From assembly GCA_035269305.1 (NCBI GenBank), contig DATFJG010000123.1, positions 21,254-85,253 on the forward strand: DNA of 64,000 nucleotides, read 5' to 3'. This document shows, piece by piece, positions 13,829 to 63,706 of the stretch. The notes under the pieces are model-generated. The model worked only from the letters and a program-made list of their open reading frames with translations. It searched no databases and was not told where the DNA came from. Every line of letters starts with the position of its first letter. The stretch's first letter is position 1. A program made the position numbers and the translations under genes. Source of the DNA: Clostridia bacterium (GTDB lineage Bacteria; Bacillota; Clostridia; Peptostreptococcales; Acidaminobacteraceae).

Positions 13829-14728
13829 TTACCCTTCATTGAAAACACCTGTTGATAAATAACGTTCACCAATATCACAATTAATTGTGACAATTTTACT
13901 GTTATTAGGAACTTTCTTTGCTAGTTTAATAGCGCCTGCTACATTAGCACCTGTTGATAATCCAAATAGTAGTCCATATATATCACGTATTTTTCTTGTC
14001 ATTTCAAAGGCTTCATTACTATTGACCTTAATAATATCATCAATCATTTTAGTGTCTAGAATTTCAGGAATGAACCCTGCACCAATTCCTTGTATCTTAT
14101 GAGGACCTGGATCATTACCGGATAATACTGAAGATTCTTCCGGTTCAATTGCAACTACTTTTGCATTGGTCTCTTCTTTCAACCTTCTACTTATACCAGT
14201 TATAGAACCACCTGTCCCGACGCCTTCAATAAAATAATCTATGTCTGGTACTTGATTTATGATCTCCACTGAAGTCATTTCATAATGTATCCCTGGGTTA
14301 GCAGGATTTCTAAACTGATCTAAATACACGTAATTATCATTTGCTTTTAACATACTCTCAACTTTATTAATAGAACCTTTCATTCCTTCATTCCCTGGGG
14401 TTAAAATCAATTCTGCTCCATAGGATTTTATTTCATTCTTGCGTTCATTGCTCATGGTTTCAGGCATTACAATAATCACTTTATAACCTTTTAATCTTCC
14501 TAGCATTGATAAAGCAATTCCTGTATTACCACTCGTCGGTTCTATTATTATACTCTTTTCATTCAATAAACCTTTATCTTCAGCATCTTTGATCATGCCA
14601 TAAGCAGTTCTCATTTTTATACTACCAGTCATATTTCTTGACTCTAATTTTAGATAAATCTCTTCTCCATCTATAGATAGATTAATCACAGGGGTATTTC
14701 CAATTAATTCAATAATATCTTTACTCAT
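13829..14728 (-). CDS. cysK: Cysteine synthase A (O-acetylserine sulfhydrylase)
   Basis: PLP-dependent with GSIKMR (PLP Lys region), TSGNTG and GTGGSITG motifs. Confidence 0.9.
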
Positions 14729-14749
14729 AACTCACTCCTTTATATTCTA

Positions 14750-15003
14750 AAACAAAAAACTCCACTCCCTAACTTATAGGGGTGAAGTATTATTCACGGT
14801 TCCACACTACTTTTTTCTCATTCAGACACTTTCATATCTTATCTCTATAACGGGAGAACCCGACTAAACCTACTAATTTCGGTTTGTATCTCAAAAGGGC
14901 ACTTCAATATAATTTCCATTAGAAATCTTCCAGCCTAGGATTTCCTCTCTCTTAATATCCATTAAATCTACTTTCCTCTATCATCGATTATTATTTGTTA
15001 TTC
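14750..15003 (-). promoter_or_regulatory. Cys (TGC) T-box riboswitch, proximal copy, with terminator
   Basis: Minus strand has GATGA K-turn, AGTA, AGAGAGAGG AG-bulge and GGCTGGAAG distal loop. Specifier is TTGAAG-TGC-C (+ strand gca 14899-14901) and the T-box sequence is AGTAGTGTGGAACCGTG. Terminator is CTTCACCCCTA / TAGGGAGTGGAG plus a T6 run. Confidence 0.85.
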
Positions 15004-15005
15004 AC

Positions 15006-15034
15006 ATTATATTAATCCTTAGTGATCTTGTCAA
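15006..15034 (-). promoter_or_regulatory. Consensus sigma-A promoter of proximal T-box
   Basis: Minus strand reads TTGACA (15034-15029), 17 nt, TATAAT (15011-15006). Confidence 0.7.
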
Positions 15035-15059
15035 GATTAAATTGTAATTATTTCAATTG

Positions 15060-15312
15060 AAACAAAAAAACTTCACACCCTAACTCATAGGGGTGAAGTA
15101 TATTCACGGTTCCACACTACTTTTTTCTCATCAAGACACTTTCATATCTTATCTCTATAACGGGAGAACCCGACTAAACCTACTAATTTCAGTTTGTATC
15201 TTAAGAGGGCACTTCAATATAACTTCCATTAGAAATCTTTCAGCCTTGGATTTCCTCTCTCTTAATAGCCATTAAATCTACTTTCCTCTATCATTGATTG
15301 ATATTTGATTAG
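15060..15312 (-). promoter_or_regulatory. Cys (TGC) T-box riboswitch, distal copy, with terminator
   Basis: Near-identical to the proximal copy, with the same TGC specifier (+ strand gca 15209-15211). Terminator is CTTCACCCCTA / TAGGGTGTGAAG plus a T7 run. Confidence 0.85.
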
Positions 15313-15313
15313 T

Positions 15314-15342
15314 ATTATATGTGCTATCATATTATCTGTCAA
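15314..15342 (-). promoter_or_regulatory. Consensus sigma-A promoter of distal T-box
   Basis: Minus strand reads TTGACA (15342-15337), 17 nt, TATAAT (15319-15314). Confidence 0.7.
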
Positions 15343-15573
15343 TAATAATTTTAAAGTAAGTAGAAGAAAAGTGATCATTTAATGGAAGTCAATAGGCTGA
15401 TGAGTGCCAATCAAATCATCTCTTTACACTTTATCTAATTAATGTGCAATTAGGCTTAGATGAATTTATCTAATAATTAAAAGTACTTTCTAATTTTTTT
15501 ATTATAAGTGCTTTTCACTAACTCAATACTGAGTTTAACAACTTAGTCTAAGTAAAATTCTTTTAAAAAGAAT

Positions 15574-15602
15574 TTGACATGGTAATTTTTTAATGCTATC
15601 GT
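15574..15602 (+). promoter_or_regulatory. Sigma-A-type promoter for leader ORF / ABC importer operon
   Basis: TTGACA (15574-15579), 17 nt, TATCGT (15597-15602). The -35 is overlapped by the inverted repeat AAATTCTTTT/AAAAGAATTT. Confidence 0.55.
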
Positions 15603-15631
15603 ATTAATCACATTGGCATTGGAGGAAAATT

Positions 15632-15754
15632 ATGAAAAATTTAGAATCAATAATAATTATCCAAAATTTAATTTTTTCTAGTACTTGTTGCTGTTGTTCT
15701 GTTTTTATAGAAAACAAAATAATAGCGTTTTGTGCTGGAAATAACAATGCTTAA
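15632..15754 (+). CDS. Unannotated 40-codon upstream ORF with CCCC run (candidate Cys leader peptide)
   Basis: GGAGGAAAATTATG opens MKNLESIIIIQNLIFSSTCCCCSVFIENKIIAFCAGNNNA. Codons 19-22 are TGT TGC TGT TGT (15686-15697). Confidence 0.5.
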   Translation: MKNLESIIIIQNLIFSSTCCCCSVFIENKIIAFCAGNNNA

Positions 15755-15796
15755 GTAAATATAAATCATTATATTTATACAATAATTTTAATTATT

Positions 15797-15827
15797 AAGT
15801 ATCGGTTGTTTACCGATACTTTTTTTA
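15797..15827 (+). terminator. Intrinsic terminator in the leader of the ABC importer operon
   Basis: AAGTATCGGT-tgttt-ACCGATACTT followed by T7, 53 nt upstream of the SBP start codon. Confidence 0.75.
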
Positions 15828-15880
15828 TTGCTATAAAAAATGATTCGTCAATTATATGTAAAAATTATTAGGAGGAAATT

Positions 15881-16669
15881 ATGAAAAAAAGTATTATATT
15901 AGTGACAATTATTGGGATTCTTATTTTAGGTGTACTAGCATTTTCTATAAACTCTAGAGAAGATGATAACACACTTATAGTTGGTATGAGTGGTGGTTAC
16001 AGACCATATACTTTCTTAAACGATCACGCTGAATTAAAAGGTTTTGATGTAGATGTATGGGAAGAAATAGGCGCAAGAACTAATTATAGGATTGAATTTG
16101 AAACATCAGATTTTAGTGGTCTTTTTGGTAAACTTGAATCTGGTCAAATTAATACAATAGCAAACCAGATAACAATTACAGAAGAGCGAGAAGAGAAATA
16201 TGATTTTTCAAAACCTTATGTGTACTATGGTGCTCAACTCGTGAGTAAAGAAGGAAACACTGATATAAAAGATTTAGAAAGTCTACAAGGAAAAAAAGTT
16301 GGCGTTAGTCTAGGTTCTAATTATGAAAAAATGATTATGGATTCTCAATATGCTGATCAAATTGATGTTATAACTTATGAAAACTTTCAAGGATCACTAC
16401 AAGATGTATCTAATGGTCGTTTAGATGCTGTTTTAAATGATCGATTAGCAGCCCTTACTGCTGTTAATGAATCTGGACTTAATTTGCAATTAGCTGGTGA
16501 ACCATTGGAAGTGCTGTCGAATGCTTTCCCATTTGTTAAAAATGATACTAACAAAGAATTGATCAGAACAGTTAATATTGCTATTACTGAAATGTATGAG
16601 GATGGCACCATGGAAAAACTTTCATTAAAATGGTTCCCAGTCAACATAACAGAAATAGCAGGTGAGTAA
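15881..16669 (+). CDS. Amino-acid ABC transporter substrate-binding protein (family 3; cystine/polar amino acid type)
   Basis: N-terminal signal/anchor. GYRPYTF and GFDVDVW motifs are typical of polar amino-acid SBPs. Confidence 0.8.
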   Translation: MKKSIILVTIIGILILGVLAFSINSREDDNTLIVGMSGGYRPYTFLNDHAELKGFDVDVWEEIGARTNYRIEFETSDFSGLFGKLESGQINTIANQITITEEREEKYDFSKPYVYYGAQLVSKEGNTDIKDLESLQGKKVGVSLGSNYEKMIMDSQYADQIDVITYENFQGSLQDVSNGRLDAVLNDRLAALTAVNESGLNLQLAGEPLEVLSNAFPFVKNDTNKELIRTVNIAITEMYEDGTMEKLSLKWFPVNITEIAGE

Positions 16670-16670
16670 A

Positions 16671-17336
16671 ATGAATTTTGATTTAAGTTATTTTTTCAAG
16701 ATCATCCCTGTCATTGGCAGAGCATTGCCAGTAACGCTGTCCATTGCTACCTTATCAATGGCATTAGGTTTAATTTTAGGTACAGCAATAACTTTTATCT
16801 TAAAACATGCTTATTGGCCAATCAAGGAGTTTTTTAAAGGTTATGTATCATTTTTTAGAGGTACACCATTAATGGTTCAGCTTTTCATATTTTTCTATGG
16901 CGTTCCTCAGTTACTACCTTTTTTATCGAGAATTAATGCATACTCTGCATCAGTTCTTGTAATGAGTATTAACGCAAGTGCGTATATTTCTGAAGTTATT
17001 CGATCTTCATTAAATTCAGTAGATTCTGGTCAACTAGAAGCAGCAACTGCTATGGGTATGACAAAATTTCAAGCGATGGAACGGATTGTTTTACCCCAAG
17101 CTTTTAGAATTGCAATACCACCTTTAGGCAATACATTAATTAATCTGATCCAAGGTACAGCTTTAACTTTTATGCTTGGTCTTAAAGATATAATGGGTAT
17201 TTCAAAAATGTTAGCAGCTTCATCCTATCGTTTTTTTGAAGCCTACTTAGCTGTTGGGTTAATTTACTGGATTATTACAAAGTTGGCATCAATCGCTAAT
17301 AAATATCTTGAAAGGCGGTTAGATTATGAGCAATAA
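16671..17336 (+). CDS. Amino-acid ABC transporter permease
   Basis: HisM/GlnP-type permease with an EAA-like loop (EAATAMGMTKFQAMERIVLPQA). ATG 16671 is preferred over the track GTG 16662. Confidence 0.8.
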   Translation: MNFDLSYFFKIIPVIGRALPVTLSIATLSMALGLILGTAITFILKHAYWPIKEFFKGYVSFFRGTPLMVQLFIFFYGVPQLLPFLSRINAYSASVLVMSINASAYISEVIRSSLNSVDSGQLEAATAMGMTKFQAMERIVLPQAFRIAIPPLGNTLINLIQGTALTFMLGLKDIMGISKMLAASSYRFFEAYLAVGLIYWIITKLASIANKYLERRLDYEQ

Positions 17337-18075
17337 TGAAAACTTCTTAGAAGTTAAAAATCTGAATAAAAGTTATAGTGATGAAGCAATCTTAAAAAAT
17401 TTCTCTTTTCAGCTCAAGAAAAATGAAATTGTCTCAATTATTGGCCCGTCAGGTGCCGGTAAGTCAACATTTTTAAGAACCTTAAACTCATTAGAGCCAG
17501 TGACATCTGGTACTTTGATTTTTGATCATAAGACATATGATTTAAGTACAATAAGTAGTTATAAGAAAACCGAAATAAGGAAAAATATGAATATGGTTTT
17601 TCAACATTATAATTTATTTAATAATAAAACTATAATTCAGAACATTACTGAAGCACTACTCATAGTGCATAAATATAATCTTAAGGCTGCCACTAAAAAA
17701 GCTCTAGAAATGCTTGACCTTGTTGATTTAAAAGAAAAAGCCAATCAATACCCGCATCAACTATCCGGTGGTCAAAAACAAAGAATTGGTATTGCAAGAG
17801 CTTTAGCTGCTGATCCTAAAGTCATACTTTTTGATGAACCAACTTCTGCATTAGATCCTGAATTAATTGGGGAAGTTGTTAATATCATAAAAAAGACAGC
17901 AGCAAGACAATCAACAATGATTATTGTAACCCATGAAATGAGTTTAGCACGAGAAATATCAGATAGAATCATATTTATGGACCATGGCAATGTTATCGAA
18001 GAAGGGGCACCTGATGACTTGTTTCTTCATTCAAATAATAATCGCTTAAGACAATTTTTATCTCGCCTAAAATAA
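17326..18075 (+). CDS. Amino-acid ABC transporter ATP-binding protein
   Basis: Walker A GPSGAGKST, signature LSGGQKQR, Walker B ILFDEPTSALD. Confidence 0.9.
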   Translation: MSNNENFLEVKNLNKSYSDEAILKNFSFQLKKNEIVSIIGPSGAGKSTFLRTLNSLEPVTSGTLIFDHKTYDLSTISSYKKTEIRKNMNMVFQHYNLFNNKTIIQNITEALLIVHKYNLKAATKKALEMLDLVDLKEKANQYPHQLSGGQKQRIGIARALAADPKVILFDEPTSALDPELIGEVVNIIKKTAARQSTMIIVTHEMSLAREISDRIIFMDHGNVIEEGAPDDLFLHSNNNRLRQFLSRLK

Positions 18076-29728: not shown

Positions 29729-29847
29729 ATTGTATATTTCATAAATTAACTATATCCTGTCTCTGTCATTAAAAGATCAAAGCAGTGATTTAAAACTATT
29801 GTTTTTCTAATTAAGTATGATTCTCAATAAGATATCATCTTAAGGTC

Positions 29848-45554: not shown

Positions 45555-45760
45555 TTTTTAACATCCTCAATAATTCACAGTAGCGCAACATTATAATCAA
45601 TTTATAATGACAGTTCTATATTTATTTAATATAGACCCAGGAAATATATTTTGGTGAATATATACCTTCGGCAAATTTCCCTTTCGTCACTTCTCATCGA
45701 TTACCAATCTAAAAGCAACTACTATTAAAATTCGCACCTCTAACTTCAAACATGAGGTTT
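45555..45760 (-). promoter_or_regulatory. Lysine riboswitch (L-box)
   Basis: Minus strand carries the conserved L-box blocks AGAGGTGCGA, AGTA, GCCGAAGG, CCTGGGTC, AACTGTCA and TGCGCTACT in canonical order, upstream of lysC. Confidence 0.85.
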
Positions 45761-63497: not shown

Positions 63498-63504
63498 CTC
63501 TTAT

Positions 63505-63584
63505 CTTCTGTCCTTTTACCTGAGAGCTTGATTATTTTTCAATAACTTTCCCCTTCGGTGTTCAATGCTGAATCTCTCCAGAAG
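63505..63584 (-). promoter_or_regulatory. Glycine riboswitch, single canonical aptamer
   Basis: Minus strand reads CTTCTGGAGAGATTCAGCATTGAACACCGAAGGGGAAAGTTATTGAAAAATAATCAAGCTCTCAGGTAAAAGGACAGAAG. P1 is CTTCTG/CAGAAG. The conserved GGAGAG, CACCGAAGGGG and CTCTCAGGTAAAAGGAC blocks match the V. cholerae and B. subtilis glycine aptamers as I recall them. Confidence 0.85.
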
Positions 63585-63706
63585 TTTGTCCATTAACGGT
63601 CACCTAAATTTCCACTAACTTCATCCAATATTAAATTAGACTCAGTTTAGCATATTTCATATAAAAAGTAAAGTGAATCTTCTAAATGAACAATTGAGAT
63701 TTAATT

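Follow-up and report, generated by a model that had tools for sequence, protein, structure and literature searches.

A Cys-codon leader upstream of an ABC importer operon

We analyzed a 64,000-nucleotide (nt) stretch of clostridial DNA (contig DATFJG010000123.1; referred to below as the window) in which an operon for an ATP-binding cassette (ABC) importer is preceded by a leader containing a promoter, a Shine-Dalgarno (SD) site, a short open reading frame (sORF) of 40 codons with four consecutive Cys codons, and an intrinsic terminator (Table 1). An earlier note on this DNA had marked each of these features at the positions where we also found them, and had proposed that together they make up a ribosome-mediated Cys attenuator. 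That proposal is supported by the presence of a similar sORF, Cys run, and terminator in related leaders, and we think it likely that the element is a Cys-responsive, ribosome-mediated transcription attenuator of the trpL/hisL type, which controls a cystine/cysteine-type ABC importer.

The leader promoter matches at 10 of 12 hexamer positions, has a TG-extended −10 element, and is the best plus-strand promoter-like site between 14600 and 16100. Its −35 TTGACA and TG-extended −10 are retained in the leaders of L106, L019, and L018 (here and below, L-numbers are labels of related loci that we compared with the window). Transcription would start near 15609, yielding a 5′ untranslated region (UTR) of ~22 nt, with GGAGG, ahead of the sORF ATG. 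The terminator (15797-15821) is the sole terminator-like site in the same 14600-16100 interval, and no promoter-like site was found between it and the ATG of the first importer gene (15828-15880; ATG at 15881). Leader RNA folds much more stably than shuffled sequences (minimum free energy [MFE], −59 kcal/mol; z = −7.3). Chance alone would produce 0.12 runs of four TGY codons per 64 kb. The window holds three such runs; the two outside the leader (21709, minus strand; 22179, plus strand) lie within large genes, out of frame or antisense, and we set them aside as irrelevant.

The importer operon encodes a substrate-binding protein (SBP), a permease, and an ATPase and is of the polar-amino-acid ABC importer type. 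The best NCBIfam matches of the three proteins were to cystine ABC transporter components, namely, the SBP (E, 1e-59), the permease (1e-50), and TcyN (2e-78), all below the curated cutoffs. Relatives in PDB include proteins that we take to be cystine binding, and the substrate of the importer is presumably cystine or cysteine.

TABLE 1 Coordinates of the leader elements and the importer operon in the window
Feature	Position	Strand	Details
σ70-type leader promoter	15574..15602	+	TTGACA 15574-79, 17-nt spacer, TATCGT 15597-602
P0 5′ strand, proposed anti-antiterminator	15615..15621	+	GGCAUUG; in the 5′ UTR, abuts the SD site, pairs with 15745-15751
SD site of the leader sORF	15621..15625	+	GGAGG; GGAGG or a near variant also lies 5′ of the sORF ATG in related leaders
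Leader peptide sORF	15632..15754	+	40 codons plus TAA; ATG 15632, stop 15752-54; product MKNLESIIIIQNLIFSSTCCCCSVFIENKIIAFCAGNNNA
Hairpin P1	15675..15741	+	Outer helix 15675-84:15732-41, inner helix 15689-98:15718-27, apical helix 15700-06:15710-16
Putative regulatory Cys codons	15686..15697	+	TGT TGC TGT TGT, codons 19-22
Putative antiterminator, 5′ strand	15739..15754	+	AAAUAAC.AUGCUUAA = AAAUAACAAUGCUUAA; just 3′ of P1, holds the stop codon
Hairpin A	15755..15778	+	15755-64:15769-78; surrounded by the antiterminator helix; in relatives it varies or is replaced
Hairpin B (small)	15781..15796	+	15781-86:15791-96; A/U-rich 3′ strand shared in part with the antiterminator 3′ strand
Putative antiterminator, 3′ strand	15795..15811	+	Terminator 5′ arm plus loop; UUAAGUAU 15795-802:15747-54, GUUGUUU 15805-11:15739-45
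Intrinsic terminator	15797..15826	+	Stem AAGTATCGGT/ACCGATACTT 15797-806:15812-821, loop 15807-11, T-run 15820-15826
Importer operon	15881..18075	+	SBP 15881-16669, permease 16662-17336, ATPase 17326-18075

Conservation of the Cys leader upstream of SBP orthologs

Protein database searches yielded hundreds of SBP relatives at 53-89% identity. We compared the contigs of such relatives, plus 80 metagenome loci, and scored a locus as positive when an sORF with SD and ATG, and with four or more Cys within six codons, lay upstream of the SBP gene. The Cys sORF was present at 4 of 4 loci with ≥75% identity, 20 of 21 with 60-74%, 9 of 14 with 53-59%, and 0 of 46 with 45-52%; the sole miss in the 60-74% class is a contig that ends inside the Cys run. 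Among species-representative genomes there is one close relative, L001 (SBP 64% identical), which has the same layout and the sORF MKNLNKSFFTIEKFSSNCCCCFVSTKTTQ, while 14 distant relatives (≤36% SBP identity) in a scan of genome contigs had no Cys sORF.

The 33 loci with the sORF carry 4-6 clustered Cys codons, in frame with SD and ATG and with no stop between. They encode 30 distinct leader peptides of 20-52 amino acids, for which the Cys run is essentially the sole common feature (for example, MKILKLKKVNHNSIFSSTCCCCCSVFIKKQNNSVLCWK, MIKSIITLNKIANTCCCCCCFQENSIRLN, and MTRTQNNTNTTSKMNMEVCCCCSCCSQQMNNGYF). Named hosts include Acidaminobacter sp. JC074 (leader at L022:2813-2960; MKHSILGNSKISYTCCSCCCVYKT) and Oceanirhabdus sp. 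W0125-5 (L023:2813-2970; MKSIINLIKNYKSESVSLCCCCTCQNLIDKYS); thus, the Cys leader occurs in at least two orders of Clostridia, represented by Acidaminobacter (Peptostreptococcales) and Oceanirhabdus (Clostridiaceae). The run varies in length by whole codons (4, 5, or 6) and is sometimes interrupted (CCSCCC, CPCCC, CCCCSCC), always in frame; insertions and deletions, both between the ATG and the run and inside it, are multiples of three. The position of the sORF stop codon shifts among leaders, and DNA conservation between the window and L001 extends past the L001 stop codon, as it also does for L001 and L019. In all but 2 of the 33 Cys leaders, we detected an intrinsic terminator ahead of the SBP gene. 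Among the outcomes that the earlier note had named as refuting its proposal was a Cys run not conserved in related leaders; with these 33 loci, the proposal passes that test strongly. As far as sequence comparison can tell, a pattern of this kind marks a regulatory leader peptide.

The same note had described the sORF as unannotated. Such sORFs are mostly missed by gene callers, but this one is not strictly unannotated, since its product has been deposited as HKL42677.1 ("hypothetical protein VJ962_08890 [Clostridia bacterium]"), from a metagenome-assembled genome. Nine other leader peptides, looked up in a collection of 15 billion proteins, were not found, suggesting that gene callers normally overlook such sORFs. 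A Cys-rich micropeptide is the alternative that the earlier note had named: the sORF would be an independent gene for such a peptide (metal or redox active, a small toxin, or the precursor of a ribosomally synthesized and posttranslationally modified peptide [RiPP]), with its own terminator and with the importer transcribed separately. The good SD site and promoter, the strong terminator 3′ of the sORF, and the fairly hydrophobic window peptide fit such a gene, as does the NCBI entry itself. However, the 30 orthologous peptides, many of them polar, are alike in the Cys run only and are otherwise unrelated in sequence and length, which speaks against a functional peptide, and the conservation of DNA past the stop codon implies that the 3′ part is kept as RNA rather than as peptide. 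Although the other neighbors vary, the element is always directly followed by the same SBP gene, and in the window no promoter-like site lies between the terminator and that gene. In addition, the leader peptides had no family match (NCBIfam, window peptide only; Pfam, seven leader peptides), the peptides scanned matched no model of Cys-rich RiPP precursors or small-protein families such as SCIFF, and no maturase gene adjoins the sORF, whose neighbors are the ABC transporter genes and otherwise vary among loci. We therefore regard a micropeptide gene as very improbable.

Several relatives lack the Cys leader. In Geosporobacter ferrireducens and in metagenome contigs (L024:2920-3000, L047, L048, L049), no Cys leader precedes the SBP gene; the short leaders of L024, L047, L048, and L049 share the motif AAATACTAWGG between promoter and SD site, which may be a repressor site in place of an attenuator. 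Fusibacter (L025) is also without a Cys leader. Four loci (L073:1872-1904, L090:1872-1904, L074, and L070:190-222) have a 10-codon ORF, MR[AP]CCCGYFI, ~100 nt upstream of an SBP gene whose product is 45-46% identical to that of the window; they come from a higher-GC organism and have neither SD site nor terminator, and because they are nearly identical to one another, conservation of the ORF there says little.

The Cys codons lie in a covarying hairpin

The dominant structure of the leader, which the earlier note had not included, is hairpin P1, with the Cys codons in its 5′ arm, pairing with 15718-27. A two-tier P1 with the Cys codons in this position is the MFE fold in 26 of 27 leaders. We evaluated P1, with its structure given by hand, in a sequence-only MAFFT alignment of 26 leaders against slid controls in which pairing partners were moved 1-3 columns. 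In P1, 75.5% of cells were paired (controls, 36-46%), the covariation score was 0.273 (controls, 0.04-0.10; ≤0.097), and 52 cells were changed on both sides (controls, 13-27). A covariance-model alignment gave similar figures, but that alignment is fitted to the structure. RNAalifold predicted no pairs for the 26 P1 segments aligned with MAFFT, since this alignment mixes two helix registers. A covariance model of P1 (R1) found exactly one match per leader-bearing locus and no other match in the window or in leader-less loci (414 kb in total).

A hairpin so strongly structured and covarying could also point to P1 and its flanks being a ligand- or protein-binding RNA, such as a riboswitch or a repressor target, with the ORF a by-product of a UGY-rich helix; the synonymous positions of the Cys codons, which are identical in the window and L001, would suit this explanation as well. 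Yet the UGY run is in frame with SD and ATG, without an intervening stop, at 33 of 33 loci, and its indels come in threes. The apical part of P1 varies freely, and P1 has no conserved internal loop or junction of the kind that is typical of ligand pockets. The leader also matches no Rfam family, at gathering or at permissive thresholds; at E ≤ 10, the region 15560-15880 gave noise matches only, such as a microRNA and MALAT1. A binding RNA appears to us highly improbable, and in our preferred reading, a leader-peptide attenuator, P1 would be the structure that a stalled ribosome opens.

Alternative pairings and predicted fold switching

Around P1 we found three mutually complementary strands: one in the 5′ UTR (15615-21), one just after P1 (15739-54), and one formed by the 5′ arm and loop of the terminator (15795-811). 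The post-P1 strand can thus pair alternatively with the 5′-UTR strand, in a duplex that we call P0, or with 15795-15811, in a putative antiterminator. We compared these strands in seven sequences from four lineages (window, L107, L018, and L019/L001). In the window, the P0 duplex has an energy of −9.6 kcal/mol (shuffles, −2.7 ± 1.9), and across the compared lineages ≤1.2% of shuffles were as good as P0. Its core changes in step on both sides in four lineages: GCAUUG:CAAUGC in the window, ACAUUG:CAAUGU in L018, and GUAUCG:CGAUGC in L019/L001. When each strand was combined with those of other lineages, the lineage's own P0 pair was the most stable in its row of the energy matrix for L107, L018, and L019/L001, and equal best for the window lineage. 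Antiterminator pairing amounts to −10.9 kcal/mol in the window, with 0.2% of shuffles as good, and to −7.4 to −11.4 kcal/mol across the compared lineages, with ≤2% of shuffles as good. The 5′-UTR strand of L019, UUAAGUAUCGG, is identical to the terminator 5′ arm of the window; the two strands therefore mimic each other.

Three hairpins downstream of the stop codon, described in the earlier note as mutually exclusive, are indeed present, but hairpins A and B coexist with the terminator in the MFE fold. Hairpin B was considered as an antiterminator and rejected: its short form coexists with the terminator, so that it is not needed in that role, and the long-range pairing of 15739-54 with 15795-811 is much stronger.

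Nascent RNA of the window was folded to position 15812, when the 3′ arm of the terminator has yet to be made, with the ribosome represented as a masked region; L026 was treated likewise. In ribosome-free RNA, P0 and P1 are predicted to form, leaving the terminator arm essentially unpaired. A ribosome placed on Cys codon 1 or 4 abolishes P1, and the antiterminator helices 15739-45:15805-11 and 15747-54:15795-802 form instead, in the window and equally in L026. A ribosome placed on the stop codon masks the antiterminator strand, so that the antiterminator cannot form. In the window lineage, the terminator 5′ arm was paired with a mean probability of 0.49 for free RNA, 0.75-0.79 for the stalled state, and 0.43-0.62 with the ribosome at the stop codon. 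Masking of the Cys codons or the stop codon had been suggested in the earlier note, which could not derive the regulatory logic: for the window and L026, the Cys mask leads to the antiterminator and the logic can now be derived for the window lineage, but the other lineages are still without a clear switch.

From these folds we suggest the following sequence of events. Transcription would begin at ~15609, and the 40-codon leader ORF would be translated while it is being made. When Cys-tRNA(Cys) is ample, the ribosome would pass the four Cys codons and reach the stop codon at 15752, within the antiterminator strand 15739-15754; this strand would be covered by the terminating ribosome or, after its release and refolding of P1, taken by 15615-15621 (P0). 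The terminator (15797-15821) could then form, and transcription would end before the SBP gene. When Cys-tRNA(Cys) is scarce, the ribosome would stall on 15686-15697 in the 5′ arm of P1, which could not form; with P1 lost, P0 would be outcompeted by pairing of 15739-15754 with 15795-15811, the terminator would be blocked, and RNA polymerase would enter the importer genes. Absence of translation, like full translation, would give termination. The operon would thus be on when the cell is starved for Cys, provided that the sORF is translated, that ribosomes stall at its Cys codons, and that folding is timed as the scheme assumes. We put this particular arrangement of P0, P1, and antiterminator forward tentatively, at a little less than an even chance, and our greater confidence is in the attenuator as such.

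Evidence that weighs against an attenuator of this kind

Several observations tell against the attenuator interpretation or its detailed scheme. At equilibrium, full-length window RNA with masked Cys codons still prefers P0 plus the terminator, which means that the decision must be kinetic (cotranscriptional), as in all attenuators; moreover, coupling of transcription and translation is reportedly poor in Bacillus subtilis, which would make the timing harder. The detailed switch is not general across lineages. In L018 and L019/L001 the stop codon lies 5′ of the antiterminator strand, so that a terminating ribosome cannot mask it; the 16-bp P0 of L019 persists in every constrained fold; and in L106 the antiterminator is already the MFE fold without a ribosome. 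Equilibrium pairing of the terminator arm in the free, stalled, and stop states showed no consistent pattern over 16 leaders, and an automated search for antiterminator and anti-antiterminator duplexes was noisy, with nonsignificant z-scores outside the window lineage; the sequences are very A/U rich and consequently offer many weak alternative helices. The importer substrate is a presumed one, because the SBP scores below the curated cutoffs for cystine transporters. Finally, L108 (63% SBP identity) has an sORF, MRKQLYITKIMKKTLISNSMEHCCCC (200-356), with its stop directly after four Cys codons, but no terminator and only ~75 nt from the sORF to the SBP start.

Most leaders outside the window lineage have a terminator 5′ arm of the form (U)AGAAGG or GAAGAAGG (for example, at L029:1935-1953, L022:2937-2955, L032:1757-1780, and L042:1684-1709). 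A conserved U-rich box, AUUUACUUUAUUU, is located just after P1, 5′ of the (U)AGAAGG-type terminators; it may be an antiterminator strand or a pause site. In this terminator subfamily, the only hairpins found to overlap the base of the terminator were local, weak, and A/U rich, and inspection by eye did not find trp-like pairing between the P1 3′ arm and the terminator 5′ arm in the UAGAAGG-terminator subfamily.

The equivocal character of the family-wide equilibrium predictions also leaves some room for reversed logic, in which stalling at the Cys codons would promote termination and the operon would be on when cysteine is plentiful; in addition, several relatives can form a small hairpin just 5′ of the terminator regardless of ribosome position. 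In the window and L026, however, the Cys mask raises pairing of the terminator arm, that is, the antiterminator state, and the stop-codon mask leaves this pairing no higher than, or near, that of the ribosome-free state. For a sulfur amino acid importer beside cysK-cysE genes that are controlled by T-boxes (see below), we would in any case expect induction by shortage. We consider reversed logic extremely unlikely.

Another alternative retains the poly-Cys sORF as the sensor of cysteine and changes its output to translational control, Rho-dependent polarity, or mRNA stability, so that the hairpin and U-tract would merely end the leader transcript. L108, whose sORF is followed by no terminator, suggests that some members may act on translation, and outside the window lineage the antiterminator logic is unclear. 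The only Cys upstream ORFs (uORFs) to have been studied experimentally likewise act on translation (bioRxiv 10.1101/834739). Against such an output, 31 of 33 leaders have a canonical hairpin containing G+C, with a U-run, between sORF and SBP gene; significant pairing that sequesters the terminator 5′ arm is present throughout the window lineage; and the Cys run of the window pairs within P1, not with the SBP SD site ~170 nt downstream. On balance, an output other than termination seems unlikely.

Within the attenuator reading, what sets the decision may differ from stalling alone. The 5′-UTR strand 15615-21 abuts the SD site, and the stop position drifts freely among leaders, so that the decision might depend on ribosome loading, or on queuing after the ribosome that has stalled (disome sensing in the initiation region). 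Alternatively, stalling might be influenced by the nascent poly-Cys chain, for instance through its thiol or redox state. Either way, two readers of the tRNA(Cys) pool, a T-box and a leader peptide, would work at different thresholds in a single divergent control region; we rate this as a minor possibility.

Divergent cysK-cysE T-boxes and other RNA elements

The genes cysK and cysE lie on the opposite strand, divergent from the importer leader. The earlier note had reported a single Cys T-box before cysK; instead, we found two complete tandem copies preceding cysK-cysE, at 14775-14993 and 15086-15303 (minus strand; Rfam RF00230). They arose within a 310-bp tandem duplication with 94% identity (within 14749-15342), and each T-box comes with a perfect TTGACA-17-TATAAT promoter of its own (at 15034 and 15342). 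The T-box specifier is probably UGC (Cys). Rfam detected no T-box features in the importer leader (15560-15880). Elsewhere in the window, Rfam matches above the gathering score were a third T-box (1032-1289), a pan motif (29753-29841), a lysine riboswitch (45573-45750), and a glycine riboswitch (63498-63591), all on the minus strand.

These T-boxes, ~300 nt away on the other strand, respond to the same signal that we propose for the importer leader, charging of tRNA(Cys), and have the same output, terminator read-through. They differ in that a T-box binds uncharged tRNA directly and does not require translation.

Relation to known attenuators

Amino-acid-specific leader-peptide attenuation is a textbook mechanism in Proteobacteria, with Escherichia coli trpL and Salmonella hisL, the latter with its A:B, C:D, and E:F hairpin scheme, as classical examples. 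Like these, the window leader has a promoter-proximal sORF and an intrinsic terminator, with consecutive codons for the amino acid to be sensed located in a hairpin 5′ arm; mutually exclusive pairings would decide, and termination is predicted with no or full translation. It differs from trpL and hisL in its amino acid, cysteine; in its host phylum, Bacillota (Clostridia); and in its target, an ABC importer instead of a biosynthetic operon. In addition, the proposed anti-antiterminator strand of the window lies in the 5′ UTR, upstream of the SD site, rather than in the coding region, and as many as ~55 nt separate the Cys run from the stop codon. The clostridial leader is not homologous in sequence to trpL or hisL, and it matches no Rfam leader family. 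In Firmicutes, attenuation by amino-acid-specific leader peptides is considered rare because T-boxes, riboswitches, and repressors (CymR, for example) serve there.

Cys leader peptides without terminators were first predicted in Actinobacteria (PMC1262725). In mycobacteria, leaderless polycysteine sORFs such as Ms5788A exert translational control by occlusion of the SD site of the next gene, and the authors of that study stated that uORF attenuation for cysteine had not previously been described (bioRxiv 10.1101/834739). Those sORFs resemble the window sORF in having consecutive Cys codons upstream of sulfur-related genes, where they sense cysteine supply. They are, however, leaderless, lack a terminator, and have a Cys tract that pairs with the next SD site, none of which applies to the window leader; it has a 5′ UTR with an SD site, a Cys tract that pairs inside P1, and a canonical intrinsic terminator. 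The uORFC-8-2 motif upstream of cysS in Rhodobacterales is a predicted attenuator with two tandem Cys codons (PMC8632094). Like the window leader, it is predicted to be ribosome mediated, places its tandem Cys codons within the first of two stems, and has a U-run at its terminator; it differs in having only two Cys codons, in its alphaproteobacterial hosts, in its target (cysteinyl-tRNA synthetase), and in its unrelated sequence, and it is purely computational.

In Firmicutes, histidine leader peptides upstream of hisS/hisZ paralogs have been predicted in Bacilli (PMC2965389); like the clostridial Cys leader, they are amino-acid-specific leader-peptide attenuators where a T-box would be expected, but they differ in amino acid, genes, and class (Bacilli versus Clostridia) and are predictions only. 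Ribosome-mediated attenuators that sense drugs have been proven in B. subtilis upstream of bmrCD (bmrB; PMC4191407), tlrB (yxjB; PMC6851288), and vmlR (PMC9226507). In these, as proposed here, a ribosome stalled on a leader ORF shifts RNA folding from terminator to antiterminator; their stall is caused by a drug, not by shortage of charged tRNA, and they have no single-codon run. A literature search for a Cys leader peptide that is clostridial or associated with a cystine transporter found none; many subscription papers were not covered, so an earlier description is possible. On the sequence evidence, we believe the clostridial Cys leader is best filed as a new family of the known mechanism of leader-peptide attenuation.

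Implications

The leader represents a widespread, clearly conserved family in Clostridia, with 30 distinct leaders from two orders or more; if our reading holds, its signal is the rarest of the amino acids. No earlier attenuator specific for Cys would then have shown the complete classical anatomy: an SD-led sORF, 4-6 Cys codons, a hairpin, and an intrinsic terminator. It also puts an annotation rule at hand for sORFs that are almost never called, or are called "hypothetical," and it would provide regulatory evidence that an uncharacterized clade of SBP, permease, and ATPase proteins imports cysteine or cystine. Attenuation needs a ribosome that keeps pace with RNA polymerase, and the family therefore bears on the coupling of transcription and translation in Clostridia. 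Lastly, the locus would offer a natural side-by-side comparison of two sensors of tRNA(Cys) charge, with synthesis under a T-box and uptake under a leader peptide.

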